Of a stretch of DNA of 64,000 bases, positions 113 to 27,724 are shown one piece after another. A model generated the notes under the pieces. It had not been told where the DNA came from and made no database searches. It was given only the letters and a program-made list of their open reading frames with translations. The translations under genes were made by a program, and so were the position numbers. Position 1 is the first letter of the stretch. Each line of letters begins with the position of its first letter. The stretch spans positions 3,744,944 through 3,808,943 of the forward strand of contig OZ316894.1 in assembly GCA_973895155.1 (NCBI GenBank). Reading direction: 5' to 3'. The stretch is from Marsupella aquatica (lineage: Eukaryota; Plantae; Marchantiophyta).

Positions 113-127
113 ACCGCCACTGTCCAT
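113..127 (+). repeat. Left TIR of the Kolobok-like element
   Basis: ACCGCCACTGTCCAT, preceded by TTAA; exact reverse complement of 14889-14903. Confidence 0.9.
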
Positions 128-321
128 ATAAATATCAGAAGGGGACAAGTTCCGGTCAGCTCATTCTCTCCAGAGGTGCCCAGCAAAGGCCAGGCTTCCG
201 ATTCTCAGCCAGAGCCGGCTAGCCCCAGCCAAAGGCTCCGCAAAACACTGCGTCCGTAGTTAGTACGTGGCAGTGCTGTGAAACGGGCCTGTGCAATCCT
301 GAGTGGGTTTGTGAGTGGGGT

Positions 322-591
322 GGTCACCGTGAGAAGGTGCTGCCATAGCCATCGACAAGGGGGACCCCACCGAACGAAGAAAGGACGAGAATTTGTTGTT
401 TTCGTCGTGGCAAAGGAAAGTGGGAGTAAACTACTGAAAGCCTACGGCTCTCGTGTCGGTCTGCTAAGGCCAGCTTTGCTCTGCGGCCGGGGGCGGGCGT
501 GGTTCAAGATTGGATTGGGAGCAGCACCATTCATCGATGGCGTGCATTGCCCCGAGAAGGTCACCGTGAGAAGGTGCTGCCATAGCCATCG
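322..591 (+). repeat. 33-bp subterminal direct repeat (322-354 and 559-591)
   Basis: GGTCACCGTGAGAAGGTGCTGCCATAGCCATCG occurs twice. Confidence 0.9.
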
Positions 592-3582
592 GGGTTGATC
601 AGTAGGCTGGGCTGGAAAATCTGCTGCTAAAGCTATGGACGTTCGTCACAGACGTGCTCTGCTGGGCTGGAAAAGCATCCAAGCTAAAAACATTCCAGGA
701 CTTCAAGCATGCTCGCGACACTAATGCTTATCACTAACAAAACTGCATCCTTCTTGACTTGCCGAATCCCGCTGCCAATCCATTCAATGTGGGGGCGGAA
801 AGTCACAAACATCTCTTCAAATTGCACAACATCACACCAACAGTAGTCGCAACTCAGATTTGCAAGTATGGTTCACTGCGTCACATCGCAGCATCCTCAC
901 AGCCCCACTGTCATGGACATGCCCAATGGCCCCGAATGTTGACCATTACCCAGAGCCATGTTGACCATTACGTGATCTTCCAAGATTTTATTGACTATAC
1001 AGCCAATGTGCATAATCGCTCACCATGGGATGCTTCGTCTTACGAAGTGGAGTAGGTTTCAAAGGGGAGAGACCAAATTGGATATGTGCTCTGTTTTTGT
1101 AGAAGCATGCGCGGCAAGGTTGGTAGGAACCGAAGCATTCGACCAACACTCCCGAAAATGAACAAGTCCTTGCGTGCAAAATCTTCCCCTTGAAACTTCA
1201 ATAATTCACAATGAATGCTACTAAGTTCTGGATCCAAGACGCAGCAATCTTCTCACTGACATACACAAGGCTGTTGCATTGCTAAACATGTCTGCCCTAA
1301 AGATATCCCTTTATAATTTCTTTGGAGTACATCCGCTTGATGTACAACCTAGGTCATGGATTTGCATTATCGAAGATGGCTACAAGGAGTACATCTCCTC
1401 CATCGATCCAAGTTGTAGTAGTCGCAAGTAAGTACTGACGTTGTTCAAACACACTTGATAGTAACAAAAGTGCACCAAAGATCAAATGTACTCATAAATT
1501 TTGTGCATCTTGTCACTGCCGCGTCTGTATCCTTTCGAGACAAATCAGGCGAATCGCGACAAGCAAAGTGTAACTACTCCTGCTATCAGCGAGAGATTTT
1601 ATTGATTGTTCTATTATAAGGTGCACCAGCACAACCGAGCTGTCACTCTCAAGTCATTACGGGCAAGATCGTGCTTGATTTCCGTGTCTGCCCATTTGCA
1701 TGCACCAATGAGCGCTTTACGTTTGTTGAACAGAAGATATCACAATAAGGCAAGATCATAATTCAATCTTTCATTGATACCAGACACAGAACCCTCTGCC
1801 ATAGTGGACACAAGCCATCGAGAAAACAGGGTAACAAAACTCTGCGAACCTTCTGTGTCTGTCCCCGCAATGAAGCACAATCTCTTTGAAGAAGGAAAAG
1901 TTTGGCAACGCTTCTCCTTCCTTTGGCCACTTCAACAATCCGAGGTTCTTCGTCAAACATCGGCTTCTGGTACTTGGCAGCAAAAAGCTTGTGTTGCACG
2001 CCTTTTGCAGGCTGTGCTACCCATTGTGGATAAAGCATCTCTTGCCTCAGAGTTGAATTGGAACATAGTGTTGAAGCCTTGGATGACTGAAAACACGATC
2101 GAATGGCCCATGTAAGGGCGGCAGTCAGTGAAGCTCTGAAAACCGCAAAGGTGCTCTCATCACATGACGGTCGCATCAGTAGTGACGCTAAGTTTGAATT
2201 TTCGGAACTAGCAAATCTCAGTTGTTCGCCATTTGATAAGAACAATGTGAAAAGCTTTTCATAAAAAATGAGGCGTGATTGGCTGGTCGGAAGATAGCTT
2301 GACCGCTGGTGCCTCACAGATTATCGATGATAAAGAAGAGTTCACTGAAGGTCGAGGGTGATTGAGGGGCAATTGTTCGTCTACGCAGAAGGTACGCAAT
2401 TTTGGCAAGATAATTATGTAGACAAGCATTTTTTGCAACAATGGACGTACCCCGTCTCTAGCAGCCTTCAGTCACCTGCACACTACAACAATAGGGTAAC
2501 CATCAACGTCAGCCCAAGGTCCAGCAACTCCCAATGCATGTCGCAAATTTGTTGTCTATAACTTGGGGAAACGCGAGGGGAGATGATGAACGTTATTCAA
2601 AATTATGGGCTGAACGGAGAGGCTCCAAGTATGTCAATTCAAACACATGTAGTCTATGAAATTTTTTTATGTAGCTTCTCAATGATGACGGACTGAAAAT
2701 TATGAAAAATGCACAACATCCAACTGAGGTCGGACTGTAGTATGTCCGGTTTTGCGTGATGCAGATCCAAAAAAGTAGCTTATCTTATTAGATTGTATTG
2801 GTTACTCTAGGAGTGAAAGACATTATACTGAGTCTTCCCACATTGAGGCTAGGAAAGTATGCAGGTTCATGGAGGTTATAACAAATCCGATCGACTTCAA
2901 AATGACGGGAGTTGAAAGTGAACTAGGCAGCCTCGTCTCATCCTAGGAGCTGACACAACCTGCAAAACATCTGGGACTCACGTGGGTCAAATGCAACTTG
3001 CCGAGGGAAATGACCAAGTTTTGCATAACTTGCCATCTACATTAGTAGGGTACTGACTTTGGTGAACTACCATAAATCTGGATTCGCTCTAAGGGAAGGT
3101 ATGAACCAAACCATCCACTTAGAGCATAATTGGGAATGGCGTGGGGCTCTTTTTCTCTTACTTGCTGCAATTATTATTCTCAATGTATTTTTCTGCAGTA
3201 CATTTTTCTTCATTGTAATCATGGACCTGGTGTGAACTTCTACATCTTCATTCATAAGTGCATTCTTGCAAACATGACCTTTGAGGTACTAGAAAAATAC
3301 AAGGACATATAATTTACAAATTCTTGTTTGTTGTATTGTTAGGTTGCTAGAGACGGACAAATGGACCGTCCACCGCCTGCGATTGATTATCACCAAGTTG
3401 GAGGCAGTCTTCGATGTAGGCTTCCTGGAAGTCATATACGTAGATACCATGCCTTACAAGGGGCCCTCAACATGTCTCATGGAAAGATTATGGCTTGGCT
3501 CATGGATGGTATGTCCGAGCAAATATCGGCTGTTATTAGTGCTCATCACGGACAGGATGAAGAAGGGGATGTAATGGCATTT

Positions 3583-4057
3583 TGTTGAGCATAGACGACG
3601 ATCGCAACGGCAAGCCCATGAACCATCCAACGCACAATAGTCGACACAAGAGATACGTGGTTCACCTCCTTGAGGCTACGTCCACGGGAACACACAAGAG
3701 AACTTTACTGAACTCTAAGCCCGTCGGCTATACCGAGTCTCCACAGTGTAAGCTCTCCCTATCTCTCAAGTGGCTCCATAACAATGAGCCTTGGTTCTAC
3801 CTCTCCAAGCACACATGCCTCTTATGATATAGTGTGCAACTTAGTTGTACCTAACCACATAGTTGTACCTAACCACATAGTTGTACCTAATCACGTAGTT
3901 GTACCTAACCACATAGTTGTACCTAATCACGTAGTTGTACCTAACCACATAGTTGTACCTAATCACATAGTTGTACCTAACCACGTAGTTGTACCAACCC
4001 ACGTTGTTGTACCAACCACGTCATACCTAACCTAGACGTAAGAGTAAATACCCAACA
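3583..4057 (-). repeat. Copia 3' LTR, with CATTT on both sides like a solo LTR
   Basis: Identical to 8143-8617; CATTT at 3578-3582 and 4058-4062. Confidence 0.95.
3842..4020 (+). repeat. 18-bp tandem minisatellite (~10 units) inside the LTR; also at 8402-8580
   Basis: Unit TAGTTGTACCTAAYCACR; produces the spurious VVPNHI ORF. Confidence 0.95.
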
Positions 4058-5776
4058 CATTTGAGGGTCCAGATGACTTTGGATGGATAAATAATGAACA
4101 CCTTGCTGATGAAGAGGACTTGGGAACCTTTGGGTTGATTGCTCAGGTACTTTTAATAACATTTTTCATTCTACTTTGAACTTGTTTGCCTTCCCTAATC
4201 CCTTTCTTTCCAGATTTTAATTTAATTGGAGTATAACTCTTTCACCATCTCTCCTTTTGTATGTGTTAAAAAAATTGGGTTATCCAAAATTTAGAGGTTT
4301 TATCTTTGCCGATACATCATGTTTTATTACTGTTAACCTATGTTTGTATTTATTTATTGCAGCCATTTTGTGGTGCACCATCCTCCGTTCCAAATGATGA
4401 TGATTCCAATTTTGATATGGCATCACCTTCACATGATGAGCAAGTTCATTCATACTCCAACACTTGTGTATTTGACCGCATTCAGTCTGGGAGGGAGGAT
4501 GCAGAGCACATTCCGGACTCCAACATAGAATTGGAAGATTGTTCTATGATGTCCGATTCCCAGGTAACTGTGTAGTTTAGCTTTTTCAATTAATTTGCTT
4601 TGTGCTACCTTTGTTCCATACATTGATAAGTCATGCAAATGAGGACCTCTAGTTTTTCATAGGTGTACATTAATTTAATGTAAAGCTTAGCTTCAACTAA
4701 TAAACAAATATTGTACCCTAAACCCTAAACAGATGTCAAATGAGGATGGACCCATTTGTTTGCTGGATGTGGCTGATCCAACAACATTTGGATTAGATGA
4801 TATGGTTTTCATGGATTCTGGATTTGAAGAGGCTCCAACTCAGGTATTACATTTTTGCACATTCTTGTACTTGTCATTTGTATCAATTCATAGTCTGTTA
4901 TAATTCCTCCTTGCAATTACTGCATTTTTAGTTAACTTACTAATTATTGTGTGTTGTTTTAGGCATCTACTTCTTCTGAGCAAATAGAAGTTGACTGCCG
5001 TTTGGATTATGAGTATGAGCCATCTTCTCAAGAAACTGAGTCAGACCCTGAGAGTTTGGTGGAGTATGCTTTTTGGCAAAAGAGTAAGGTCCACGAATTT
5101 TTCCAGGAGTTTTGTGTGAATTGTCGTATTGAAGGTTGTGACGGTAAGTACTCGGTTGAGGACATTGTCACACACCATCAGTTGTGGATATTGAAGCTAA
5201 AGTGCCCAACAGGGCATGCACAATCTTTCATGACCGGAGAAAATGAACTTTATAGAGGTATGCAATCTACTCAAATTAATTTTATACTTCTGTCTTTTTG
5301 TACCTAAATGGCTTAATATTGTGTACCTAATCTTGTTTAATTTATGAATACAGGTGTTCCTGCAATCACTGGATTAATTTACCACTCTGCTCTCTCTGCT
5401 GGTCTAACACACAACATGATAAGTGAACTATTCTCTCACATTCAAATCCATGTTCCAAGAAATACACATTGGTTTCGATTTCAAAATGGAGCCCGAAGAG
5501 ACATTGGATGGATTGGAGCAGTATTGCAAGTTTGGGATAATAAGAAACAAAGGTTGCAACGAGGCCTAGCAGAAAGAGACGGTATATGAGTCTTCCTTTT
5601 AGTGCACAAGCTTGTGTTAGTTAATTACATTGAGTAATGAATTTATCATTTTACTAGGTACCATGTTGTTAGAGCATCATGTAAATGGTGATTTTATAAC
5701 ATTATTTTGTGGTTTATGATAATTGTAGGTTCCACTCCATTAATTCTATATGTGGATTGTCGTTGGGACTCATCAC
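4058..5776 (+). repeat. Duplicated copy of the transposase gene segment 8618-10336, lying inside the copia element
   Basis: Line-by-line identical at offset 4560, with identical ORF translations; diverges after ...GGGACTCATCAC (5776 / 10336). Confidence 0.95.
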
Positions 5777-7718
5777 CATTCTGTTGCGGAGTATAAACTG
5801 TGGTGAGATGGCGAGTTATCCCCTGTTCTGAACAGTACTCTTCAAATTCCATTGAAGTGTACTCCCCGCCGTTGTCTGACCTCAGACTCTTCACCCTTGT
5901 ATCCAAACACTTGATCGTGTTTCCAGTCTGATTCTCCACCTGGGCCTTCCACTTCTTAAAAATGGACAAGACATCAGACTTATGCGTCATGAAATAAATC
6001 CACACAAATCTTGAGTAATCATCAATAAATGATACATAGTACAACTTTCCAGAGTGTGAGGGAGTCGGGGATGGACCCCACACGTCACTATGTATGTACT
6101 CAAGAACCGCTTTGGAACGATGAGTTCCAACACCAAAAGCACGACGATGCTGCTTTCCAAGAATGCAATGCTCACAAAACTCTAATTTACAAGATTGCAA
6201 ATCAGAAATGAGTCCATTCTTCCGTAAGATAGCCAAACCCTTCTCACTCATGTGGCCTAGCCGTGAATGCCACAGTTGAGTCATCTCCTCGTGAGACTTG
6301 GTTACATTGGCCTCTCCACATACAGTATTGCCCTGTAACACATACAAATTCTTTTGTCTACTCCCCTTCAAAATCACTGTCTCTCTCGACCTGACTTGAA
6401 GTTCACCATCAATAACGCTCCATTGATGACCATTTGAATCCAACACACCGAGTGAAATCAGATTCTTACGCATGCCAGGTACATACCTGACTCCGGACAC
6501 TATGCGCACAGCGCCATCAAACATTTGAATCTTCACAGACCCAATTCCCTCAATTTGACAGGAGTGATCATTTCCCATCAGAACTGAACCGTTTGAAACA
6601 GAGTAAGAACTGAAAAACTCACGAATGTAACAAATATGAAAAGAGCAAGCACAATCAAGAATCCACACATCATCTGCTCTCCTAGATGACGTGCACAGGG
6701 CATACCCCCGGCTTCATAAAACATACTCATCATTGAGTAAATCAGCTTCTCCATCAGCCCTAGCCACATTTGCCGATGAAGTTTCCGCTGCCTTTCCCTT
6801 ACAGTCTCGCTTGAAGTGTCCAACTTGGTTGCACTTCCAACATGTCACCTGCCTCCTCTGAGGGGATTTACCCTTGGACTTAGATCTGGATTTAGATCTA
6901 AACTGGGTTCTACGGTCCCCAGTTGGTCGCTGCATACTCCTCCCACGGTTAACATTGAGGGCAGCACCAGATGATGAAGGCTATGACGTGATGTGCATCT
7001 TCTGCTGAAGATCATCACTAAGCAGAGAACTTACCACGTCATTGTATGAAATGGTATCCCTATCACGATGCAACAACACTCGTGATAGGGACTGGTAAGA
7101 TGGAGGCAATGAACTAAGAAGCTGCAGAGCCTTCGTCTCATCATTCAAAGTCTCCCCAAGGTTTTCCAAGTCAACGACCATGTCGTTGAAAGCATCCACA
7201 TGGTCTTGCAACTTCGTACCAGATTCCTTCATCCTGAAACTCATCAGTTTGTAGGAAGTGTAGAGCCGGTTCGACAACTCCTTGCGGTGATACTTGCTCT
7301 GCAATTCCGCAAACAAGGACATGCAATCCTTATGTGCACCTAACTGCTTGATGATGGGAGGCATGAGATAGAGTGTAACACACCACACTCCCTGCTCCTG
7401 CATGCGGTCCCATTGTTTCTCATCAACATCGTCTTCACGAGGGCTCAGCAGTTGGCCCATCCCTGACGCATAAAGCACTCCCTTCACTTGCTTCTCCCAT
7501 AGCAAGTAGTCAGAGCGCCCATCATACTTTGTCACTTCATACTTGGGTCCCCCAAGCTTGAAAGTCCCCATCTTCTTCTTTACCGTGAGCTCCGGTAGTA
7601 GTACTGCTTCCTCCACCACACGCCGCACCGGTGATGGTATCGGTGTCACGTGCTCTTCCTCCTGCTCCTCTCTCTGCCCCTGAAACCTCCGCGGTGATCC
7701 TCGTGCTTCAAGTTCCAC
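5777..7718 (-). pseudogene. Copia gag-protease-integrase polyprotein, truncated within the integrase core
   Basis: One reading frame across ORFs 6981-7718, 6714-6935 and 5694-6668, with two in-frame stops. UBN2-type gag, CWKCNQVGHFKRDC zinc knuckle, WILDCACSFH protease, LWHSRLGH, HSDVWGP, RSDNGGEY, then TPQQNG followed by an abrupt junction. Confidence 0.92.
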
Positions 7719-8142
7719 GTCTTGTCAACAACGAATGTTGATCAATTGCACTTGGTGCCGTCACCAAGTCCAACAAGGTAATTGATTTTGCTTAGCCTTC
7801 CTCTTTGCATCAAAGAGCCAATCCCGGACTCAAAAACAATCGTCTTGCCTCAATCTCTCCGTTGAGTCAAAACACTTGACGCTTCTCCCTCCGAGTCGAT
7901 TGCCAACTTTCTTCACAAAATCCAGAATGACGAAAACTTAGATCTCTCTGCACCACGAGCTCCGTTCAACGATTTCTTCACACCGTTAGAAAGCTCTTGC
8001 CCTGATCTATCCGTTGAGCCCATAAACTCCAAGTTCCATGCGATGGAACTCTGGAAAATCCACCAACACTCAACGCTGGAAAAACCGTCATGAAATCCCG
8101 TCACGAACACACGTCACCTCCCAAGCATGCTCTGATACCAAT

Positions 8143-8617
8143 TGTTGAGCATAGACGACGATCGCAACGGCAAGCCCATGAACCATCCAACGCACAATAG
8201 TCGACACAAGAGATACGTGGTTCACCTCCTTGAGGCTACGTCCACGGGAACACACAAGAGAACTTTACTGAACTCTAAGCCCGTCGGCTATACCGAGTCT
8301 CCACAGTGTAAGCTCTCCCTATCTCTCAAGTGGCTCCATAACAATGAGCCTTGGTTCTACCTCTCCAAGCACACATGCCTCTTATGATATAGTGTGCAAC
8401 TTAGTTGTACCTAACCACATAGTTGTACCTAACCACATAGTTGTACCTAATCACGTAGTTGTACCTAACCACATAGTTGTACCTAATCACGTAGTTGTAC
8501 CTAACCACATAGTTGTACCTAATCACATAGTTGTACCTAACCACGTAGTTGTACCAACCCACGTTGTTGTACCAACCACGTCATACCTAACCTAGACGTA
8601 AGAGTAAATACCCAACA
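8143..8617 (-). repeat. Copia 5' LTR
   Basis: TG...CA termini, adjacent PBS, TSD CATTT at 8618-8622. Confidence 0.95.
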
Positions 8618-11600
8618 CATTTGAGGGTCCAGATGACTTTGGATGGATAAATAATGAACACCTTGCTGATGAAGAGGACTTGGGAACCTTTGGGTTGATT
8701 GCTCAGGTACTTTTAATAACATTTTTCATTCTACTTTGAACTTGTTTGCCTTCCCTAATCCCTTTCTTTCCAGATTTTAATTTAATTGGAGTATAACTCT
8801 TTCACCATCTCTCCTTTTGTATGTGTTAAAAAAATTGGGTTATCCAAAATTTAGAGGTTTTATCTTTGCCGATACATCATGTTTTATTACTGTTAACCTA
8901 TGTTTGTATTTATTTATTGCAGCCATTTTGTGGTGCACCATCCTCCGTTCCAAATGATGATGATTCCAATTTTGATATGGCATCACCTTCACATGATGAG
9001 CAAGTTCATTCATACTCCAACACTTGTGTATTTGACCGCATTCAGTCTGGGAGGGAGGATGCAGAGCACATTCCGGACTCCAACATAGAATTGGAAGATT
9101 GTTCTATGATGTCCGATTCCCAGGTAACTGTGTAGTTTAGCTTTTTCAATTAATTTGCTTTGTGCTACCTTTGTTCCATACATTGATAAGTCATGCAAAT
9201 GAGGACCTCTAGTTTTTCATAGGTGTACATTAATTTAATGTAAAGCTTAGCTTCAACTAATAAACAAATATTGTACCCTAAACCCTAAACAGATGTCAAA
9301 TGAGGATGGACCCATTTGTTTGCTGGATGTGGCTGATCCAACAACATTTGGATTAGATGATATGGTTTTCATGGATTCTGGATTTGAAGAGGCTCCAACT
9401 CAGGTATTACATTTTTGCACATTCTTGTACTTGTCATTTGTATCAATTCATAGTCTGTTATAATTCCTCCTTGCAATTACTGCATTTTTAGTTAACTTAC
9501 TAATTATTGTGTGTTGTTTTAGGCATCTACTTCTTCTGAGCAAATAGAAGTTGACTGCCGTTTGGATTATGAGTATGAGCCATCTTCTCAAGAAACTGAG
9601 TCAGACCCTGAGAGTTTGGTGGAGTATGCTTTTTGGCAAAAGAGTAAGGTCCACGAATTTTTCCAGGAGTTTTGTGTGAATTGTCGTATTGAAGGTTGTG
9701 ACGGTAAGTACTCGGTTGAGGACATTGTCACACACCATCAGTTGTGGATATTGAAGCTAAAGTGCCCAACAGGGCATGCACAATCTTTCATGACCGGAGA
9801 AAATGAACTTTATAGAGGTATGCAATCTACTCAAATTAATTTTATACTTCTGTCTTTTTGTACCTAAATGGCTTAATATTGTGTACCTAATCTTGTTTAA
9901 TTTATGAATACAGGTGTTCCTGCAATCACTGGATTAATTTACCACTCTGCTCTCTCTGCTGGTCTAACACACAACATGATAAGTGAACTATTCTCTCACA
10001 TTCAAATCCATGTTCCAAGAAATACACATTGGTTTCGATTTCAAAATGGAGCCCGAAGAGACATTGGATGGATTGGAGCAGTATTGCAAGTTTGGGATAA
10101 TAAGAAACAAAGGTTGCAACGAGGCCTAGCAGAAAGAGACGGTATATGAGTCTTCCTTTTAGTGCACAAGCTTGTGTTAGTTAATTACATTGAGTAATGA
10201 ATTTATCATTTTACTAGGTACCATGTTGTTAGAGCATCATGTAAATGGTGATTTTATAACATTATTTTGTGGTTTATGATAATTGTAGGTTCCACTCCAT
10301 TAATTCTATATGTGGATTGTCGTTGGGACTCATCACGTTCTGGATACCATGGCACTGTTCCCGTGATAGACGTGGCTACTGGTAAGATAGTAGAGCTTGT
10401 AACAATTGACCGGGTTGAGGCAGGGAATTCAGGCGCTATTGAGGCACTTGGTGTACGTCGTGCCTTGGAACATCTTCAGAATGTTGGGATTACAATCAAT
10501 GAGGTTGTTCACGATGATAACAACACTATTGATAATATAATTTATGAATTCAATATTGATAACCAGAAGGATTTGTGGCACAAATGTAAAAATCTATTGA
10601 AGCAGTTTAACAAAGAGTTGGCAAATGTGAAAGAAATAGCACCTGCTTATGGGATTGATGGTGCAACATCCTTGGAGGAATTGGGCAGATTTACAGTTTG
10701 GGTGTTGTCAGATTGGTGTAAGAACCAAAATTTGAGACACACAGGTAATAAGACAGAGTTGGTGTATCGCATTGGAAGACATAGAGGATTGCCAGAGGAG
10801 GACATCACATTGCGTACCAGGAGGCAGTTGAAGTATCCAGAATTGACAGAGAAGCAACTTGGTGATAAGTTGAAGAGTTGGTTTTACTATTGTTGTTGCA
10901 ATGCAAAAGAAAGGTAGGATGATAACTATGGTATTTATTTCCATTTACATGACTTCTGTAAATGTTACTTTTGGATTGAACTGACCTAATTCTTGAGTTG
11001 AATCTTAATGACTATTTGCAGGGGAAATGATGATGCTGCCATGTTGGCTAGGGAGATCATCACTGCAGCTGATCACTGGGCTGGTAACCATGAACTTTGT
11101 AAAAGTTTCCTTCCTCGCAAGTGTTGTGAGGAAGGTGCAATTTATAGTCCATATTATGTCGCGGGTAAGTGAAAATCTACTAGCAATTCTCCCTGGTTGT
11201 AAGTTGCATATGACATGAATAATGTGCTTGGGTTGTTATGTAATATTTTAATATTTCCAAAAAAATAAATTAATGTGGATACTTGTGGATTTTACAGGGG
11301 GCGCTACACATAGAGCTCTAAAGCAATGGTTGCACAAGAATGTCACTGCAGTCAATGTTCGCTTCTACACTAGAGCCCGGGCAAACTTCCTTAGTGAAAC
11401 ATTTCATGGAAATGTCAACAAATATGCTATGAAGAGGATTCATTTTTCCATGACCCACGAAGCCCGCATGGCTTGTGCTGCAATGTGCTGGAATGAGAAC
11501 ATCGGTCGGGAGGTGGTACGAGTTAGAACACGACAGCCTAGTAATACTTGCACTCGTCAACGGCCATCTAGGGTCCGTGACCTTGTTCCTAGAAGCATCA

Positions 11601-12405
11601 GATGGAAGAAAGACGTGGCCCGTATCATATTCGAAAGAGGTGTAGATTATGATTCATGAGCACTTGATAAATTTATTTTGGCTTGGAAAAATCCACACGT
11701 GTTGTTTATTTGACATGTAGGAGATATATAAGTTGTGGATTTTACTATATTCATTTGTCATTTTTCTAGTCCAATATATCACCTTGCCATCTATTCTTTT
11801 TTGTATTAGTGTATTAGTAGGATGTGAAAGTTAGGGTTTAGTACCATGAATGAAAGTTGTGAGTTATGTTGAGATTTGTCACACTTTTGGCAAATGGCCA
11901 TGGCCCCAGTATCCCTCATTTGCCCTGCCTATGAAGAGTAGCATGCATGGCATGGCATTACGGAAGAACCTAGTAGATATAAAAATTGAAACAATTTTCC
12001 AAAATTTGACAATACTCCAAAGGGGAATTGAACCCCTCGTGCTGCCATCCAGTAGGAGTTCCAACCCAGAGGAGGGGGAAGGAGGCACAAGCCAAAGAAA
12101 CACGTGTAAAGAGTAGCACAAAGAACCCATAAATGACAGTACTAGAAATAAACAAATAAATAAACTTAAACAAACACAAGTGAACCTCAACAAGTAAATG
12201 CAGAAAGAGGGATGGTTTTTGCCTTGCATCTCCCAAGTTAGGGTTCTTAATGCACTTGGGAGAAGAAGGAGGCACATGCCAGATAAAAATAATAAAATAG
12301 TATGATAAAACAAAGAAAGCATGGAACAATAAGCAAATTCATACTGATGAAAAGATAACCACACAACCTTAGAAAACTAAAGGCATACACCAACATGGTG
12401 TTTGC

Positions 12406-12991
12406 TTAGGAACTACTAGGTGGCCTGCACTTGTAGTTGGGAAAGAAAGGGTGGCACTTGCAATACAAAGACCCAAAAACTAGTAGAACAAATAACCTAG
12501 ACATGGAAAATAACTCAAGTGATAAGAACAATGATGAAAAGAAAAAAGTAAAAACAACCTCCAAACCTAGCTGTTGTTCACCAGGTAGCTCCCAAGTGGA
12601 CTGCCCTGCACTTGTAACTGCTGCCGGGAAGGGTGTTCTATCTGCAAAACTAGCAACATGTGCTAGTTTGCGATAGACAATGTACCTCTGTCTGCGGGGA
12701 ACAGTTTCAGTGTATGCCCATGCAGCACACATATGAAAAGCCTGAACTGTTGCGGGAGAAAGAGCCTGGGCAGAGTTGAGGTCAGCAAGGTTTTCGTCAA
12801 TTGCTGTGCAAAAATTTGGGAACCTAGCAACAATGTCTACATGTCTCAGAAGTCGGAATTTCCGACGTCCTGGTGGAGGAACTGGCCATGACAAGCGGTA
12901 TATGCCATCTCCATAGGATATCAATTCTGCCGGTCTGTTTTCATGCTCGACACTCCTACAACATGGCCAATTTAAATTCAATGTCATGCAA
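12406..12991 (-). CDS. KolX-like accessory protein (P2X7 C-terminal/ballast-like), main exon; probable upstream exon ending at 13285; 3' end uncertain
   Basis: RRQRYIVYRKLAHVASFADRTPFPAAVTSAGQSTWELPGE resembles the KolX motif RYxAYR...RxxLPxCVVxxIRxxFP. A donor at 13284 and acceptor at 12992 join YCHC...MNNL in frame to SCMTLNLNWPCCR, giving a CxC...C...CC cluster. Convergent with the transposase. Confidence 0.65.
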
Positions 12992-14888
12992 CTATAAACC
13001 TAGAAAAGTTGGGCAGGATACTAGTTGTTGTTCAATGAATACATGTTATATCTTAAATGAGATAATTAAACAAGACCAAACAACTATTATGCAAGACAGT
13101 GCATGATGGAAAGTAAATTGTACACAAACTCATTAAATTTGTGCATGTAAGACCCAAATACATGAGAAAAAATAGGGGCAACTTCTATGCATAAAAACAG
13201 GCCACAAGCAAAGTAGACATGAGCCAAAATAATTTGAAGGGGAATTAGCAATTTCTTCAATTTCTTTTGCAAGATAGAGTTTACCTAAGATTATTCATGC
13301 TGAGTGACCGGAAGGTCGATGAACAATGACAATACAACTGCACAGCATAAGGACGAAATGAATAACATAGTGGGTTGCAAAAGTGACTTGAGCATGCCCT
13401 TTCAAAAAAAAACCTCCTAAACAGAAAGAGTGAATTCAAGGCAACCAAATGAGGATGAGAATGAATGACTATATTCTTTGGTTTGGATCCAGACAACAGA
13501 CCATGTCGGCAAGGGAATATGGAGAGGAAGAACCAGGATCTGACAAGAAATCTTGTCTAGTTTGTAGACAGTAGAGAAGCCAGGGAGATCCGCAGGATTT
13601 TTGAGAGGGTGATCGGGAGCACTGTTAGAGTTCGTGTGGCCAACTAATTAACCAGTACAACATAATGTTCAAGTCAAGCCCTTTTTGTCGTCTACTCGCA
13701 ATCTAGTGTGCTATTGTTGATGGGTGAGTCTCAAACGAGATTGCAGGCGTTTCTCGGGTTCTGAGGCTTCTTGTTTTGGAGCTGCAAAATCGAGATCTTT
13801 GACAGTGAATTTTGAAGACAGAGACTTCTGGGAAAGTGCAAGACTTGTTCGATCGGGACCAAGGCAAGGGAAAGGAAGAACAAGAGATGGATGAAGTTGC
13901 AAAGATGAGCGCAGCAGAATAGAGACGGAAATGATGTGAAGTGTAAATCTTGTTCCATGAGCACTGTCCTGTTCAGGCTGACCTTTCAATTACAGCAATT
14001 ATCGAAGTTGCACTAATCGTTTTTATCCGAATTGACTTTCCACCTACTAGCAATTAATGAACGGCCGAGGCTCAATGAATGGTGAAACCCAATCAGTAGT
14101 GGCACCACCCCGGGGACCACTACAGAGAAAATAAATTAGCGCAGTTGGGTGGACTTATTCCCGACGTCTGGGACAAGATCTTGTGAATGGCAAATTGATA
14201 GTGTGACATATTCCAATTCTAAAACTTTCTCACAAGTGCAAGACGGGCCTGAAGGCCGAGCTCATTCAGTATGATGTCCACCTTGCCAGCCGAACTCGTC
14301 GAAATATAAACGTGAAGGTAACTCCTACTTCGCTGCTGCCGACAACTGAAGCTTGGCATGTGAAATCTCGATCTGTGGATGAACACTCTGCTCATGAAAA
14401 GCAGAATTTGCTGCGTAGTAGAATGGGTATGATAATTGCACGACTCGGCTGCTGAACAGTTATGTGCAGTAATATTGGTTCATAAGGAGTTCACGATCCA
14501 TTCTCCACTTGCACAACATGGGCGGAAGAGAGGTGCAGGACACTTCACATATTCAAGCAATCACGTTCCATGCTATTCAGCAGCATGGGTTCAGGAGAAA
14601 TGGTCGACTCATGTGGCTGAACACTTGCTGAACACTTGCTGAGCACCGGAGAGCAAGAATTGCTCGAGTCTGCTATTGACACTCGCGCAGCATGGGCGGA
14701 GTGAAGCTGGACCAGGACTTCCAATAACTCTCACGCCCTCCGCAAATCTAGTAGGGACACCGAGCGACATTTGCACACCTGACCCGTCCAAAAAGTATCG
14801 GCCACACTGACCGGCCAAAAACTGTCGGGGGATGCCCGGAGCTGGACATGCCCTAAATTAAGAAACCTGGTGGATCCAGGTTTCTTTG

Positions 14889-14903
14889 ATGGACAGTGGC
14901 GGT
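14889..14903 (-). repeat. Right TIR of the Kolobok-like element, with an 11-bp-stem subterminal hairpin at 14860-14886
   Basis: ATGGACAGTGGCGGT followed by TTAA; hairpin AAGAAACCTGG-TGGAT-CCAGGTTTCTT. Confidence 0.9.
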
Positions 14904-17107
14904 TTAAGACAACTTTGGCTAGCAAAAGAAGCTTTTGTGTTCCTTGTTTGATTTTATTGTTTGTTCTACTCAAACTATCATTGTCCTGTTTGGACAGGGG
15001 GCATCTGAGTCCTTGGGGTACCTTTAGGAGAGGGTGCCTTTGTGGGTGAAATTTTGCTGGCAATATTATCTTTCTTCACATTGACCAGCTGGTGGCTCTT
15101 CGTCATGTCCAGATTGTCTTCATGATATTGGTTTAATGCTTCCTCCCATGCCCATTGTACCTTCTTTGTGCTGTGCTTCCCACCCCCATATTTTTGTCTT
15201 TGCTCTCTTCATGTGACACCACTATGATTCATGAGGAGTTTTGGTTGTCTTATTAGCCCTGGAGCCCTTCATGGAGAGGATGGTTCTTTAGTTGCCTGAC
15301 AGACTACCTTGTCTCCTTCAGGTGGGGACTACATTAAAATAGCATTAGAATTGCATTTGGATTAACATACATAGTCCAATTGGGTTGCCAAACTCTCCCA
15401 CTTAGAGTGATCATAGTCTTTCATTTAGTAGACCCACTAATATTGAAACTAACCATTGAGGTATATGCTTGATATACCCCAGAACAAAAAGTGTTACTTG
15501 ATGGGATCCTTCAGTGATCCAAACCATTGACACACCTTAAATCAAAACCCAAAACCCATGGAGTTGATTTGGGAGAAACGTTTGGCATGGGGGCTCATCA
15601 AGCAAATACCTCATACTATTTGCTGTTAACTGCATTTCTTGCCAATACCAGAAATAACTCTTGCTACTTGTTATACATTTACTCTTTGGTCGATCTAGAT
15701 TTAGTATAGACCTGCAGTGAGTCTAATCATAGTCAAGTGCTTGGTTTAAGGTGAGATGAAGATAAAGGGAGAGCTTAGTCTATGGAGACTAGGTTATTTG
15801 CTTCCAACGCATCTGGGAACGCATCATGACCCAAGACAAACCAAGATTAGTAAGTTTTTGTGGAAGAACATTAGGGCATTTTAATCCAATTTGAGAAGCA
15901 TAAGAATTACAGGGATTTTTTTAACCAAATCTGGAAATGTTTTTAGATTGTAGAGTTTAGTGAAACTAGTTTGTGTGTTCCAATAATTGTAGCCTCAAGA
16001 GAGGTGAACTACATAGCTCTTGTGTGACTACTTATGTGTTAAATGTTACTCATGTGCATGCTATTGTATGAGTAACAGTTGGTTATGGAACACTACTCAA
16101 TAAAAATAATAAGCAATAAATTGTTCTTCGCCAAATCAATTGCTTTATTCATTCTTGTCCCATTATGGCATCATTAGCTCGTGAGCAAATAGATTTGTTT
16201 TTGTCCTGTTGCAAGGAAAAACATTCCTTGCATTATGACTTTTTTCATTGAGGAAAAGACCCTACATATCCATCACTTTTCTAACAAACTTATAAATTGC
16301 ATGAAAAATCCAGGAGAAGGAGAGGCAATAGAAAATAAAAAGCTGGGAATCATTCATTCAGTCTTCACGTGTCACAATATTAGGAAGGGATATTTATTCT
16401 ATTCCTTTGGGCACCTTGTTGGTATTATCAAAGCATCATCCCACCCTCCTAACCCTCGAAACAAAATAATCAGGCATCCCTCAAATCCCCAAAGTCGGTG
16501 ACTTTTTCCTGTATCTTGTGACTAAATTATTCAAATGCCTCAGAGGCAAGCTCAAATGAGGGAAAATACATGGGACCCACCTAACCCACCTAAATGTTTA
16601 TATATAAATATTAGGTATTGGTATTTGTTCCCCTGATTGTTTTTGTATCATTTTCACCAGGAGTTGGGAAGGGAGGATTTTGGCCCTATATAGCCAAGTA
16701 AAAAATCACTGGCAATAGGGCTTACCGTTGTAGTGTCATCCTGACTTGTGCAATGAGTAATAATCATTAAAACTTTATATTTAAGTACATTGTACCCATT
16801 ATGAAACATCAAAATAATTTTGTGATGCAAAGTGAAGACATTATGAGCCTGTAGATGTGAACACTGAAGTCACAATGTCTGGATTATTTTTAAAACAAAA
16901 AACAAACAAAAACAAGAGAACATGATTGCATTAGGTTTCTGATAGTATTAAAATATACATATTAAGTAGAGTGTACACAAACTAATTTACTTGTTTCTTT
17001 AAATCTCTCCTCCCATTAGTCATTGTAGGTTGTTGCCAAAGCTCAAGATGACCAACCACTAATTAATGTACCTCCACTTAGTCAAGCTTTGAGTATCCCT
17101 TTTACAG

Positions 17108-17841
17108 TGTAAAGCCCAATGCCTTGCATTGGACAGATCGCGTCAAGGTGAGACACATATGTCTGGGTAAGACAAAGGACAAGCCAAGGAAAAACTGTCA
17201 GGCAAGTTTAAATGGTTAAGGCAAGTGTTAGGATTAACTCTTAGGTCTAGAGTTACGTCTATACCACAGTTAGGGCTAACCTTAGTCGCAAACTAGGTTA
17301 GGTTAGTCATGTTGTGCACTCTATATCCCAAACAATTTTTGCTTTGATAGGAGGAACTCAGGCTCATTGTTATGGACCCATTTGAGAGATAAAAAGAGTT
17401 TATGTTGTGGATACTTGGTATGGCCGGTCAGCCTAGAGTGTAACAAAGCTCTTGAATGTGTGTTGCTGTGGATGTACCCTCAGGGGGAGGTGAGTCATAT
17501 ATCTCTCTATGTCAACTACTTGATTGCAAGCTTGATCATTGGATTGTTATGGGCATGCCATTGTGAATGTCGTCTTTGCTTAACACAAAGATGTCAGGAT
17601 GAGGCAAAGATGCCAAGCAAAGGAAAAGATTGAGACAAGGCAGACATGTCAAGGAGAGGCACTGAAGGAAATGCTATCGGTTGCTTTGGTGTGTTGTTGT
17701 GCTTAACTTATCAAGGGCTTTGTAATTAGTCATGATAAGAGCATTGCTTTGCATCTTAATTATCGCATGGGTAAGCGCCTCCGCTACCACATTCTTTTCC
17801 TTCCTATTTAGGCTTTTGCACTTGCACTAAAGAGACTTACA
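17108..17841. mobile_element. Possible degenerate LTR remnant
   Basis: TGTAAAG...CTTACA ends; no matching TSD and no partner copy. Confidence 0.3.
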
Positions 17842-18533
17842 GTGGTGAGTTCATAGTCATGTGCTGTTGCTGCGCTCTGCACTACACTACTCCCCGCACT
17901 ACTCAGCCTGTACTTGTGAGTTTGTATGGCAACACCTGCCTCCCTAGCTGCCAGGCTTGCACATTGGGTAGTCTGATTTGGTCAGGCCTTGGTTCCGAGC
18001 CTCTCCACAAGATTTCATTTAATGTTTTGTCTTGAGCTCTCTGAACACAAAGACGGAATGAATGATTGTTGGCCATTATCTCCTGTTCTTGCCATTTTTT
18101 TTTGTCTTGCATGACGATGTGGTACAGCCGTCAAGCTTGCCCAATTTCAGTTACATTTCTCTTTCGTACGTACGATAGAAATTCCATGTAGTCTCTCTCC
18201 GTTATACTTTTCCCGCTCACTATTGCTGGATTGTAGGCTGGTCTCTCTGCTGCGGCCCTGATTATGGGCCGGCTCTGCAATCTTGCTGTATTGTGTGACT
18301 AATACCAAAGCAACCCAATTTTGAACCGGAGAAGATAAGTTCCTTCTAAGCTATGATGGCCACTCCACCCATTGGTTGCTAGCAAAAGTTATCATATCAA
18401 ATTATTAAGAATTCTTGAATCGTGACCATCAAAATCTAAGAGGGATGGGAGAAGCTCACTCAAATTTATAGCGTTTAGCATGCTTCCTGTCAGGTTCCAG
18501 AAGGGCAAACATCACACCAAAACATATCAAATC

Positions 18534-19465
18534 TGTTAGGATTTGACTTGAGTTCCTGGATTAGTTAGTTTGGCCTTACAAAGGTTAGTTACCCCTACAT
18601 TACATTATGATAAGATCCGCTTAGTTTAGACCCACACATCTCGACCCCCTTAGGGTGTATAGGTTAGAGGGAGTGCATTATCTCCCTGGTTCTTCACATG
18701 TACTTTCTTATGAGCTATGTATCCTTTAGGACTTTCTCCTCGTGGTGTCTTGTTGGTGTAGTGTGAGATTGAGTGCTCTCAAGATCATAGAACACGGCCA
18801 CAATTGCAAGTAAAACACGAATAGTAGCGAACCTTTGCTGGAAAGGCCATAGCTTCTTCATAGCCAGAGGGATCTCCATCCTCAATGAGCAAAATAACAC
18901 CGGGATCATTGTTGTGCTTAGCAACGTGAACACGAGGATCTGCAAAACCACATCTATCAAAGGGTGACCAAAATTGGCTCTTGTGGAGAGCCTTGGTTGA
19001 GGAACTGCACTTCTACCAGAAGGACTAGTAGCTTCCTCATCATCACCAAGCTCCACAGTAGCGGGTGCCTCCACTTGTTCCTCCTGATTATCTCGGGGTC
19101 GTGACAAACATTCTTTGTCAAAAACAACATTTTTGCTCACAATTGCATTGCAATCGACATGATCCCACAATTTATAGCCCTTCTGTCCAGGACTAAAGCC
19201 TAGAAAATTATATTTCTTAGACTTGGGATCTAACTTAGACCTGTGTGTTTGTTCAATATGAACATAGGTAGCACAACCAAAAACTCAGAGTCTAGAATAA
19301 TCAGCAGGTTTCTTATACCATAATCCAAATGGAGTCTGCATTAACTTACTGATACCACTTGTAAAAAATTGTCGGCTCCAAACTAGACAACAATATGGAA
19401 CATTAGAGCACTCAATCTCACACTACACCAACAAGACACCGCGATGGAGAAACTCCTAAAAGATC
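18534..19465 (-). mobile_element. Degenerate, internally deleted copia remnant between LTR fragments in opposite orientations
   Basis: Minus strand encodes VFGCATYVHI..RSKLDPKSKK..FLGF..GQKGYKLWD..IVSKNVVFD (copia SH3-like region) and FATIRVLLAIVA (RT fragment). PBS TGGTATCAG at 19349-19357. About 18744-18779 is the reverse complement of about 19405-19440. Confidence 0.8.
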
Positions 19466-19637
19466 CTCTCACTCTCTTGGACTTATGGATAGTGAGCCAA
19501 GTACAAGAGATGGATTTCTCCATAAAGATCCTCTCACTCTCTTGGACTTATGGATAGTGAGCCAAGTACAACAGATGGAAAGGACAATGATTCAATAAAC
19601 AAGTTGACAGAAGTGTTACTGGAGCCCACACATCAAC

Positions 19638-19639
<2 letters not shown>

Positions 19640-19679
<40 letters not shown>
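19640..19679 (+). repeat. (GA)n microsatellite; others at ~20482, ~27728 and ~44051
   Basis: Direct reading of the sequence. Confidence 0.95.
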
Positions 19680-19682
<3 letters not shown>

Positions 19683-19830
19683 CAGACGACAACATCTCCT
19701 CATTAAAAAACTCGTTTGTAGCCATTTGCAGGTATCCAGATTCTAGTCCTGTCTCCTTCTCTGCTATCGTGAGCTCGAGTGCGCGAGCAAGACCAACCAT
19801 GAATAGAGACTTGCAGAGGACCCGATGGGA

Positions 19831-20027
19831 GACCAGGCCTCTGGAGTGAGTAGAGTCACTACTACATATTTGGCCAATTTGCCAAGGAGGTTAGGTTTGT
19901 TTGCCCCTCAGAGATTTGCCATTCCTAACCAGGCCTGTGGAGTGAGTAGAGTCACTACTACATATTTGGCCAATTTGCGAAGCAGGTTAGGTTTGTTTGC
20001 CCCTAAGAGATTTGTCATTCCTAACCC
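19831..20027 (+). repeat. ~98-bp tandem duplication (2 units)
   Basis: ACCAGGCCTSTGGAGTGAGTAGAGTCACTACTACATATTTGGCCAATTTGC...ATTCCTAACC occurs twice. Confidence 0.9.
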
Positions 20028-22448: not shown

Positions 22449-25400
22449 TTAGTATAACAAGAAATTTACAAGGAGCCCTAGGAAGGAAACAGAGAGCAGT
22501 GGGACAGATATCCTTTGTGCTGCGCTAGTTCCTCGTCCTGGACCTGGTGCAGCATCAACAGAAGGTGGGACTGCTCCTGAGACGGGAGTAGTTGAACCGG
22601 AGGTCGGAGCAGGTGAGTGGGGGGTACTCGGAGACACAGTGGGAGCCATAAGAGTGGAGGAAGTCTCAGAAGTGTAGCCTGGAAAACCCAAATTAGTCAT
22701 CCACAAATTAGTCCACCTTTCATTGCCAGTACGACAACAGTAGCTCCAGTTGCAGGGCTTCAAGAATAGATTGATATGGGAAATTAATCGGTTGCCTTTC
22801 TACCATTTGAGACACTTAGCTACCAAATTGAGCTCTAGTTGGCTTGACCTTCCCTAAAGCAGGGCATCTTTTCTTCGTTAAAACTGAGGTCGTGTGTTTT
22901 AAAGTAAAACCTAAGACCTGTTGCACAATGGTTCAAGAGCAAAAGGAGCTTACAGCCCGATTCTTCGAAGCCCAAAGTTGAGTCTCGGCGGTTGAAAATG
23001 AGATTATGTCCAACCATGAAATTCGCTGCAAAAGTGATGAAAGTCAGAGTGTGAGTGGTCATTGAAGGCACTAAGGTGCTTGGAGCAAACGAGAGCAAAA
23101 GAGGTTGAAATTCAGACAAATAAGACACCGACTTCTGAAACACAAGTCTCTTAAAATCTTTAGAAACCGCTAACCTCCAAAAATGCTCATGGAACCTCCA
23201 TCCAGAACTGCAAGGCAAAAGCCAACCAGGGTTCTAGTGCTCTGCAGTCACCGCGAAAAGAAGGGGTCAGAGATATTTGACGCAAATTCCGGCACATAAA
23301 CTGTGCCCCAGGGTCTAAATCTTCCCAAATCACAATTATCCTTGAAAACCATCGGCGTCAATAAAAATCACAACAAGCGAACCACCTAATCTCATCCCGT
23401 GTGTTAATGTGAATTAAGCTCTTTTGAATCATAATCAATAGAGTTCTTGTAAAAAAAATCAGAACGCACAAAATTCAGTTTGAGAGCATTACTTGTAAGT
23501 AATATGGTATCAAAGGATAGCTAATTTCGAATAAAGCCGCCCCACTCAATTCGAAAACAATGAGGGGAATTTCCACTTGTAAATCACTGCAACAAATCAA
23601 TGGCAAATCTCAGAAATCCGCCAAAAACTTCCGGGAACATCAAAGCTGACAAATGAGGAAAACTGAGCATACATGTCTCCCAGACAGGAAAGGCACAACC
23701 CACCTTGTTTGGTAGCAGGCTTCAAAAGTTTGATCAAATACCGTTTTGTTGTACTTTGTGACCTGTCTGGCAAACTGGAAAGAAGAGTTTGTCAGATGCA
23801 TGTTTAAGCTACAGGCGTCCACAGGTTCATAATTTGGGATCCTTACGGAACTGTGAAAGGCATGTGCATAGAACCCACGATTTAGGCGACTTACTGCATC
23901 AATGACAGCTGTGTAAACAGTTGAGGTCAGAAAGGTCGTAGTAGTTCCCGTGTCAAACAGGCTCACTTCGTTGACAGGTATGCTCTGATTCCCAACTTTG
24001 ATTGAATCCACTCCAATGTTGTAGTGTGGGTACCTGCAAAGTGAGTCGTTGAGATGCACATTTTTTTTCCGACGGCTATAAAAAACTGCAAAAGTTTATT
24101 TGTGCCTCAACTGGACAAGTCAGCCGTGTAATACTCTAAAGAGATGCAAAACATATGAGGTTTACTCCATCTCCGCGATAGTTACTAGGAAACTGGTCAT
24201 GAACAAAAGAAATTGGGATTCCTTGACCATTGGGTTTGCACTCCCAACAAAAGCACAACTATCTAGAAGCCAGCGACCGATCACTCAATGACTAAACTAG
24301 CTACAAGCCAACATGTCACTCAATGAATACCCATGCAAATATAACCTTAATTGAGCATTCTAGAACTCAGAGTAGGAAACAAGTGAACGTCAGGGAAACA
24401 TCTCTCCCAACTTCCTCGAAATGGTAGATCCTTCGTGATTTAGTCACGTGACTATTGTCTGTTTTCGTTGAGAAATGGATTAGATAATATTATTCATGAC
24501 ATTACTCTGCACAGGATGGAAAGTTTATAAAATCTCATACGTGGAATTGTTGATCTCTTTGAAAGGAGTTGACGCTACTGCGGAAGATCCAAAATCTCCA
24601 AATACAATTCTCCCAGACCCATCGACAGAGAAGCACATTGAAAATGAGTCCCCTACAAGTCCAGACTGAGCCAAGATAGAAGGTACCGAGTACGACTGGC
24701 GGCCCAGCCCCATCAGGCCATCCGGGACACTGGTACCATCCACCAGAGACCCAGTTTGGGTCTGACCACATCTGCGAGGGCAACAACAGAAAAAGGAGTC
24801 ATCAGTATTTATGCGATCATGATGCAGTCTCGATACACGTATGGTGAAAAAGTGCAACAATGAAATTGTTCAAAAGTTTTTCTCCAATTAACAGTGCAGG
24901 TTAGTCCAGTATTTTTTAACAAGCATGCATTACGGATATGATGAAAAAGAAGGCAGACCACAACTTGCAACCATAGATGCCAGTTTTTCAGTCAGAGCAA
25001 GCGCTTAGGCCGGCATGTGCAGCCGAAGTTCCCACCCGAGAGATGAGTCTTACCCGAGAATAATGGATGTCGTTATGTCTATCTGAGCGCCAATGTTAGA
25101 CGTAAGGTGAATGTCATCTTGATAAACTGTACCGCTTGTCGTCGTGTTAGCAGTCGCGTAGGCAATACCGTATTGGCACTGTCCGCTGTTTGGGAGATTC
25201 TGATCTTGGCACGTCGAAAAAATTGACGAACATTTGCTGCTACCGCAAGTCAGAGCTTTGCTAGTGGTGGATTGTGAAGGAGCGTACACATTCAACGACG
25301 GCTGTAGCCACGCACAAGTCAATTATGAGAAACTCGAAGCCAAAATACATTGACTCTCCAGACGATCAATGGATAGGCAGCAAGCAGACCAGAACGGCCA

Positions 25401-27106: not shown

Positions 27107-27724
27107 TGCTAACTAGATGGAACTCTTACCACCACCGAGTGGTATGCCTCCCTGTGCCTGCCTTCCTGCCCTCTAAAGCATGAGATGAACTGCAGAGCGC
27201 ACTCAATCGGTAGGCCGAATAACAAGAGTCCGCTGTCACAAACTTCTCACAGATTGAATGCCTCTGATCCAGAAATTTTAATATCCCATCCCGAGAAGCA
27301 AACGAGGTCCTTCTCTCTTACTCTCTCTCCTACGGCAACGAGATTGAAAGTACCACAAGACCTGGGTTTCCTTTAGTGTGGCGAGCACAACCCAATAGAC
27401 TCTCTGAACGAATTTATTCGAGAATTATCAGCTCCAGACTCCTGAAAGAACAGACTTGCCTTATTCAGCAACTACCCGGTGCAATCTAAATAAGAAAGCT
27501 CCCCTTAACGGATGGGTTGCTGAAAAATTTTGCTCGCTAGATAGCCGACCGATACAATGCAGCCTTTGAATTCATCAGGAAGTAGTAGCGGCCCCACCGA
27601 TCCGGACTGGTAACAACCCCCAACACCTTCAAATTCGTCAGGAGCTCAGTTCATCAGCTGCGAGTCTCCGTCTGTATCATGTCACACACACATCAGAGAC
27701 ACTCCCCCTCCCATGACGAGCCAA

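Follow-up and report, generated by a model that had tools for sequence, protein, structure and literature searches.

Whether land plants carry a relative of KolX, the accessory protein of Kolobok transposons that shares sequence motifs with the cytoplasmic ballast domain of P2X7, is the question raised by an open reading frame in the liverwort Marsupella aquatica. We analyzed a window of 64,000 nucleotides of contig OZ316894.1 (position 1 being its first letter, and all coordinates below referring to it), in which a first-pass annotation had recognized a spliced minus-strand gene with cysteine clusters of the form CHC...C...CCR and a motif RYIVYRK...RTPFPAAV...W, and had proposed it as a divergent plant member of this group. 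The gene was found to belong, as an accessory gene, to a Kolobok-type DNA transposon present in multiple copies. It probably descends from KolX through loss of the zinc-binding cysteines and retention of the helical C-terminal half, and its product likely assists the transposase as a small protein without enzymatic activity.

The minus-strand frame is open from 12999 to a stop at 12406 (197 aa), contains the RYIVYRK...RTPFPAAV...W motif and is indeed convergent on the plus-strand transposase gene, which ends at 11659. Variation among copies was taken from four public runs in which the element family is present, each providing 33-85 contigs over a 456-bp exon region, 15-32 of which were less than 90% alike. 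From the 40 listed variant sites (77 further sites lie outside this count), 27 were synonymous in the accessory frame, compared with 11.8 expected, and none of 5000 simulations reached so high a value. Third positions accounted for 25 of the 40, no site created a stop, and the ratio of nonsynonymous to synonymous polymorphism (pN/pS) was ~0.15, a rough figure given that the variant rows combine differences between subfamilies with changes unique to the window copy. The other two minus-strand frames yielded 3 and 6 synonymous sites of the 40, and the antisense frame that shares third positions yielded 21, with one stop. Gaps in other copies numbered 0-1 in the listed exon pieces versus 6-21 in the listed flanking pieces. 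Conservation among copies is therefore clear, and the accessory gene is a real, protein-coding gene with its main exon under purifying selection. The earlier claim of a main exon free of stops applies to the window copy, whereas two contigs of run X3 have a stop in the RRQR motif, at place 12698; at 12605 the window copy in turn encodes Gly, a private change, against Val in most others. No RNA run was listed among five runs, and no GT-AG joint was identified among the contigs of the four runs, results that are silent on expression and junctions.

Searching the main product with phmmer against 1.84 billion proteins returned 16 matches, 12 of which aligned across the domain. Four others (P0014, P0019, P0022 and P0023) were repeat proteins unmatched by the family profile and were dropped. 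Named homologs belong to Riccia sorocarpa and Calypogeia fissa (CAM6082157.1), the others being unnamed Logan proteins, and all named relatives of both the accessory protein and the transposase are liverwort proteins, with several diverged accessory homologs per liverwort genome. A profile of the six Riccia proteins alone identified a single place in the window (12840-12565, expect value (E) 5.5e-18). By locus tag, which carries no orientation, the Riccia partner homolog R1sor_008397 adjoins the transposase homolog R1sor_008396; one of six partner tags is thus placed beside one of eight transposase tags, with a chance probability of ~0.004. Many of the homologous gene calls are 5'-incomplete and may lack upstream exons. 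When the main exon was queried in a word-index search of proteins, eight candidates came up, none scored, and an ESM Atlas search gave no usable match.

These observations bear on the possibility that the element makes no use of the frame, which would then be Pack-type cargo captured from a host gene or an open frame arising by chance. Such an origin might be considered in view of the ~3 kb of unexplained sequence in the left arm of the element (113-3300), yet it is contradicted by the purifying selection among element copies, by the diverged homologs in each liverwort genome, one of them beside a related transposase, and by the lack of a match to a known host family. We regard this explanation as largely refuted, and as the least credible of those considered here. 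Given that selection acts among copies of a mobile element, we infer that the protein helps the element to spread.

Both genes lie inside one Kolobok-type transposon, which is bounded by terminal inverted repeats (TIRs; Table 1). Gapped local alignment ranked the true TIR no better than shuffled sequence (score 40 versus 32-44 in shuffles), and we therefore adopted an exact test anchored on TTAA: across 73 TTAA sites in positions 1-20000 the terminal pair shared 15 matched bases and the runner-up six, while the best pair in 300 shuffles of the same region reached 10. Inverted repeats flanked by a likely TTAA target-site duplication, as characteristic of Kolobok, were hence found at this one insertion. 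The seven-exon transposase model is open over 654 codons and comprises the motifs YVD (D288), HDD (D354/355), DLWH and SETFH (E568), all conserved in relatives, as well as a Cys/His finger, C...HWAGNH..C...CC, located between DLWH and the last E by inspection of the model and of the alignment of its relatives. At the level of sequence, the transposase carries the Kolobok signature given in the part of Kojima and Bao available to us (D..D..DxxH..Zn finger..E; PMC9587614); it resembles by eye the Kol0-type alignment rows of that part, and catalytic roles were assigned by likeness to its Data S5 rows. Relatives of the transposase amounted to 10 among 1950 candidates, comprising eight Riccia sorocarpa and two JGI proteins, at 39-47% identity.

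A SAP-like domain was also observed at 10680-10790, between DxxH and the zinc finger, which is common to the Riccia and JGI relatives (Pfam SAP, E 8e-4, weaker than the curated cut-off), and of which no mention was met in the available Kolobok passages of PMC9587614. The JGI metagenome proteins, P0006 and P0010, belong to the same transposase family, derive from short contigs and are apparently intronless. Scans of metagenome and viral contigs for related loci returned none, and the contigs of P0006 and P0010 were likewise not returned.

With an accessory gene encoded by a Kolobok-type element beside its transposase (inside the termini and convergent, with adjacent tags in Riccia), the context is that of KolX. 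We next consider the protein motifs. Ballast proteins, also termed ZCD proteins, are described in the accessible part of Rump et al. (2020, PMC7016195) by three motifs, PxWCxCx2C, LCCRx3GxCITT and (L/I/V)PSC(C/S)x3IRx2(F/Y)Px5Y(S/T)G. The same source gives R546, H547, R574, R578 and K583 as the residues of P2X7 that contact guanosine diphosphate (GDP), with R546 and R578 kept across animal ZCD proteins. Our comparison covered 16 rows, namely 15 homolog rows and the window, and included two pairs of close kin. With relaxed letters, the spacing of the third motif was reproduced exactly over 22 residues in 10/15 homologs, as against 10/320,000 shuffles, although the letter classes were chosen after the alignment had been viewed, so that the shuffle comparison looks stronger than it is. 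The match stands at the extreme C-terminus, ends in G-F/Y and has R-x3-Y upstream, giving the skeleton R-x3-Y ... LP-x6-[IV]K-x2-W-x6-F-x-G-F. In columns aligned by eye to P2X7, Y550 corresponds to Tyr in 16/16 rows, R546 to Arg in 13/16, P570 to Pro in 14/16 and R578 to Lys in 12/16. From motif spacing and context we consider descent from KolX probable; the kinship is drawn from these two sources because profile and fold searches returned no P2X7.

A number of features weigh against this relationship. The strict third motif occurs in none of the 16 rows, the Cys of its PSC element is missing from all 16, the Pro following F/W is absent in every row reaching that site, and the column of A549 contains Val or similar residues. 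The distance from R to P is 20, versus 24 in the numbering of P2X7 and in piggyBac-2_GrCh_2p. Pfam offers no family for the window exon or for the 12 homologs, and searches of PDB sequences with the family profiles (shallow, at 10-13 rows) found no P2X7 at E up to 10. Further, the published motifs include nothing equivalent to the predicted N-terminal beta-meander. Of the six Riccia partner genes, five adjoin none of the eight known transposase tags. Finally, Kolobok termini read 5'-RR..YY-3', compared with AC..GT here if the duplication is TTAA; they would read AA..TT if the duplication is the TA inside TTAA, the flanks in this case coming from a single copy at one insertion.

Structural comparison likewise did not retrieve P2X7. 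Within Pfam the tail of P2X7 is presumably represented by accession PF20478. The predicted structure of the accessory protein (predicted local distance difference test (pLDDT) 80, predicted template modelling score (pTM) 0.74) consists of a three-strand meander at residues 25-52 followed by five helices, while a single-sequence fold reached a pLDDT of 39. Foldseek comparison of the model to the PDB and to viral models gave no match at E 0.001; VIA-align comparison to 48,161 and 994 chains gave none at Z 5, the best (Z 4.6) being an unrelated design, and P2X7 was not among the matches listed (best 50 of 274, and 36 of 43). PDB sequence searches, for which the queries were the exon, its C-terminal 53 aa and two profiles of the family, yielded formate dehydrogenase as the best match (E 0.07-0.6), taken as chance. 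The profile and structure comparisons put forward in the first-pass annotation thus did not bring out P2X7; with only ~50 residues expected in common, these misses are not decisive either way.

The same results could be accounted for by a genuine accessory gene of a Kolobok lineage that is unrelated to KolX, its product being a new small fold, independently recruited, with a coincidental C-terminal likeness. The missing P2X7 profile match, Pfam family and zinc cysteines, together with the predicted beta-meander of the N-terminal half, are consistent with such an origin, as is the presence of several unrelated accessory proteins, e.g. nucleases and helicases, among Kolobok lineages (PMC9587614, as far as available). 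Conversely, coincidence would have to explain why 10/15 homologs match the third motif exactly in spacing, at a C-terminal end in G-F/Y and with R-x3-Y upstream, in the very transposon superfamily from which KolX is known. We therefore judge independent recruitment unlikely, and favor descent from KolX. We term the protein KolX-like, rather than filing it as a ZCD/KolX member, because the defining cysteines were looked for and are lacking. Taken together, the proposal of a plant gene related to KolX and P2X7 stands insofar as a Kolobok-type element carries a conserved accessory gene that is coding and has a KolX-like C-terminal motif, and is wrong or unsupported as regards the zinc cysteines.

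Closer examination of the 5' end of the gene clarifies how the cysteine clusters came to be proposed. Read at face value, the first-pass annotation amounts to a divergent ballast protein with its zinc site complete, the CHC, C and CCR clusters being brought together by a splice of 13285 to 12991. Consistent with this model, the 53-nt block 13337-13285 reads LYCHC..., is bounded by AG and GT, with the GT donor at its end, and in the window copy is in frame when joined to 12991 (213 aa). There are, however, three possible 5' acceptors of the main exon (12999, 12991 and 12955). The AG at 12993-12992 is altered in the divergent contigs covering that site (loose ends at 12981 and 12984), the AG ahead of 12999 is also missing in one contig, and the similarity of divergent contigs to the window ends at 12949 and 12961, followed by 500-1200 letters unlike it. 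Positions 12956-13000 are of intron-like composition (GC 0.33, T 0.40, versus GC 0.49 and T 0.25 in the exon), and the corresponding residues 1-20 of the predicted model (the 12956-12999 stretch) fall below a pLDDT of 50. One of four changes in 12956-12999 is synonymous (p 0.13), a sample too small for significance. The acceptor TGTTGTAG followed by G, at 12956/12955, shares the phase of the 13285 donor, and its TGT TGT AG/G is what reads CCR; x-C-R is also read, in one frame, at two of the seven transposase acceptors in the window, and the closest relative has PYCR. The main exon most likely starts at 12955 and not 12991, with CCR corresponding to the acceptor. Given the loss of the 12991 AG in other copies, the end of similarity at 12949-12961, the composition, the low pLDDT and PYCR in the closest relative, C...CCR is probably intron sequence. 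The splice that had been annotated is thus in frame here, whereas the change of its acceptor in divergent copies makes 12955 the likelier joint.

Homologs concur on the cysteines. CxCxxC, the core of the first cluster, was found in 0/16 rows, the window having only CHC in the candidate exon and the homologs possibly missing 5' exons; CCR of the second cluster was found in 0/15 homolog rows, the window reads it solely over the probable splice acceptor, and GxCITT is absent. The C-terminal zinc ligand is also missing in all 16 rows. In favor of the zinc-binding model, three Riccia rows possess CxxC upstream and many homolog calls have incomplete 5' ends. The CHC short exon is possible as a candidate; its block is intron-like in composition (T 0.38), and one contig type rejoins the window at 13280 past a 114-nt gap. 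Further upstream, other copies show gaps of 7 and 40 nt in the candidate first exon, which suggests that this exon is mostly untranslated. With CCR probably an acceptor, CHC confined to an unverified short exon and CxCxxC and CCR found in none of the 15 homolog rows, a zinc-binding ballast is not supported, and we consider the complete zinc-binding model highly improbable.

The annotated 3' end at 12406 was also revised. Other copies terminate in ...GEQHVGF(R/W)F-stop near 12553-12555, as seen in translated loose ends of all four runs and in agreement with the GE.FVGF C-terminus of the homologs, whereas the window copy has lost this stop and reads through 50 further codons of a T-rich tail. 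In this tail 0/8 listed changes are synonymous (p 0.0005 relative to the exon, with rows from few contigs). An alternative C-terminus, PGEQHDCGF, was rejected as one variant with a 4-nt insertion, HVGF(R/W)F-stop being found in all four runs instead. The family-type product would be ~152 aa.

A possible mechanism is as follows. An accessory protein of ~150 aa would be made from its own transcript and may bind the transposase, or the transposition complex, through a basic and aromatic face formed by R105, Y109, R121, P125, K133, W136 and the terminal G-F/Y. The protein has no nameable catalytic motif, and its conserved residues cluster in the last two helices and the tail. The face would be the part matching the guanine-nucleotide pocket of P2X7, which is perhaps retained, whereas the zinc cluster may have been replaced by the beta-meander. 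Binding might promote or tune cut-and-paste transposition into TTAA, such that elements keeping the helper would spread better, which could be the source of the selection on the gene.

Considered as a whole, the window copy is probably dead in cis, since a Copia long terminal repeat (LTR) interrupts the first transposase coding exon at ~3583 and the partner gene has lost its stop codon and acquired the private V-to-G change. The LTR of the insert has an LTR-like match to 17315-17588, and its primer-binding site was found by inspection. A 2195-bp duplicate of transposon and LTR sequence joins the Copia integrase directly past TCATCAC; this may represent a template switch or other real rearrangement, or an assembly error.

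Table 1. Coordinates of the Kolobok-type element and its components within the 64,000-nt window
Feature	Positions	Strand	Remarks
Kolobok-type DNA transposon copy, whole	113-14903		14.8 kb; ~10.2 kb minus Copia insert and duplication; TIRs flanked by TTAA at each end
Left TTAA, likely target-site duplication	109-112
Left TIR, 15 bp, ACCGCCACTGTCCAT	113-127	+	perfect TTAA-anchored pair
Transposase 5' coding exon, cut by LTR	3343-3582	+	tblastn of Riccia P0001 residues 10-70 to 3370-3543, E 4e-7
Exact duplicate of 8142-10336	3582-5776	+	Copia LTR and first transposase exons; 2195 bp, 100% identical; ends at junction into Copia integrase
Truncated Copia retrotransposon: integrase part, gag, primer-binding site, LTR (~8143-8398)	5777-8398	-	Pfam rve, gag_pre-integrs, Pol_BBD, Retrotran_gag_2
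DDD/E transposase, seven GT-AG exons	8923-11659	+	8923-9123, 9293-9403, 9523-9817, 9914-10141, 10289-10913, 11022-11164, 11298-11659
Accessory gene, read-through tail of window copy (3' untranslated region in other copies)	12406-12552	-	T 0.46, GC 0.36
Accessory gene, main exon	12553-12955	-	beta-meander (predicted) and helical KolX-like C-terminal half; 27/40 synonymous; 12 true homologs
Accessory gene, open, probably intronic stretch	12956-12999	-	source of the annotated C...CC; ends in acceptor TGTTGTAG
Accessory gene, candidate short exon LYCHC...MNNL	13285-13337	-	phase-2 donor; AG and GT sites
Accessory gene, candidate first exon ending ATG/GT	13502-13643	-	start codon uncertain; GC 0.49
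Right TIR, 15 bp	14889-14903	-
Right TTAA, likely target-site duplication	14904-14907

Other features of the element were also noted. The 2195-bp duplicate stands where the reverse transcriptase/RNase H half of the Copia insert would be, and a 5-bp target duplication around the LTR is not clear. Right behind the LTR, in the transposase 5' region, ten 18-bp units (reading VVPNHI) are found at 3842-4019 and 8402-8579. The left arm includes ~3 kb (128-3300) without an assigned gene, in which a 185-aa minus frame (1763-2320) and a 105-aa plus frame (738-1055) gave nothing above the Pfam cut-off, as well as direct repeats of 33 bp (322 and 559). At the right end, a near-palindromic 20-mer lying immediately within the terminus (14863-14882) recurs in inverted form at 44408-44427, possibly as a piece of a related element, and subterminal tandem repeats of 11-bp and 27-bp units are present at 14616-14646 and 14774-14828. 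Beyond the element, Copia and Gypsy elements fill the window, including diverged relatives of the insert's Copia LTR just outside it (15760-16061 and 17315-17588, 70-75% identity) and a largely open Gypsy element on the minus strand (54875-61413) with 1100-bp LTRs at 53632-54731 and 61513-62611 that are 98.3% identical. Also identified was an intron-split plant aspartic protease gene (TAXi_N, TAXi_C; 22449-27112, minus), whose frame 22449-22799 is Ser/Pro/Thr-rich with a hydrophobic end and looks like a glycosylphosphatidylinositol-type tail. This protease, the Copia and Gypsy content and the liverwort origin of all named relatives of the two element genes agree with a land-plant host.

The KolX-P2X7 link has already been published, and the element in the window is damaged. 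Two-gene Kolobok elements are here extended to land plants. A plant family under clear purifying selection that keeps one half of the motif set and drops the other would represent a natural separation of the zinc and GDP sites, of use in asking what KolX does in transposition and what either site does in the P2X7 ballast. More tentatively, and with appreciably less confidence than descent from KolX itself, bryophyte-grade land plants may harbor their own intron-rich Kolobok lineage with an obligatory helper, in which the ballast fold was rebuilt without zinc, a beta-meander taking the place of the zinc cluster and the guanine-nucleotide pocket being kept under selection; this broader proposal is doubtful. 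Were a zinc-less ballast with a pocket to exist, the ancestral function of both KolX and the P2X7 tail would reside in the pocket, not in the zinc cluster, and the protein would provide a small, soluble means of testing the effect of binding GDP or guanosine triphosphate.

In the literature searched, which lay outside Repbase and subscription journals, no land-plant Kolobok family or ballast domain is described, an unverified spinach label aside. Kojima and Bao (2022, PMC9587614, available part) report Kol0 from animals and, among plants, Kolobok only from chlorophytes and rhodophytes, and Rump et al. did not detect the ballast domain in plants (PMC7016195, available part). The accessible main text of the Riccia genome paper (PMC11735767) contains 0 mentions of Kolobok. 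A survey of 1007 plant genomes that screened for Kolobok reports, in the portion available, that the recently active clusters all came from seven other superfamilies (PMC12973397), and two of its supplements gave 0 matches for Kolobok, Riccia or Calypogeia. In the accessible portion of PMC6337768, Kolobok is named among 67 minor elements of spinach, the label being unsupported. KolX-like proteins poor in cysteine have been described before, in piggyBac elements (PMC9587614, in the part available).

Compared with known systems, limited to the accessible parts of the papers cited, the accessory gene resembles KolX of Kol0 Kolobok elements (PMC9587614), being a small second gene of a TTAA-flanked Kolobok-type element, with the domain at the C-terminus and the shared skeleton R-x3-Y and P-x6-[IV][RK]-x2-[FW]-x6-[YF]-x-G-[FY]. 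It differs in that the protein lacks the seven conserved Cys, has a loop before the Pro that is four residues shorter, and has a predicted beta-meander in its N-terminal half; the element itself differs from those with KolX in its plant host, the SAP-like insert in the transposase and the many introns of its genes (PMC9587614). The KolX-like proteins of piggyBac-2_GrCh and piggyBac-14_PI (Data S6, PMC9587614) are carried by piggyBac and not Kolobok, and retain the Cys after the Pro as well as the longer loop. Relative to the P2X7 ballast/ZCD proteins and Nanor (PMC7016195), likeness by eye extends to R546, Y550, P570, R578 (here Lys), F581 (here Trp) and the terminal Gly, whereas PxWCxCx2C, LCCRx3GxCITT, C572 and P582 are absent here and no profile or fold match links the two. 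Close counterparts are found in other liverworts, Riccia R1sor_008396/008397 and Calypogeia CAM6082157.1 representing the same transposase family (47% identity) and the same partner family, and differing in annotation, where they appear as hypothetical or SAP-domain proteins only.

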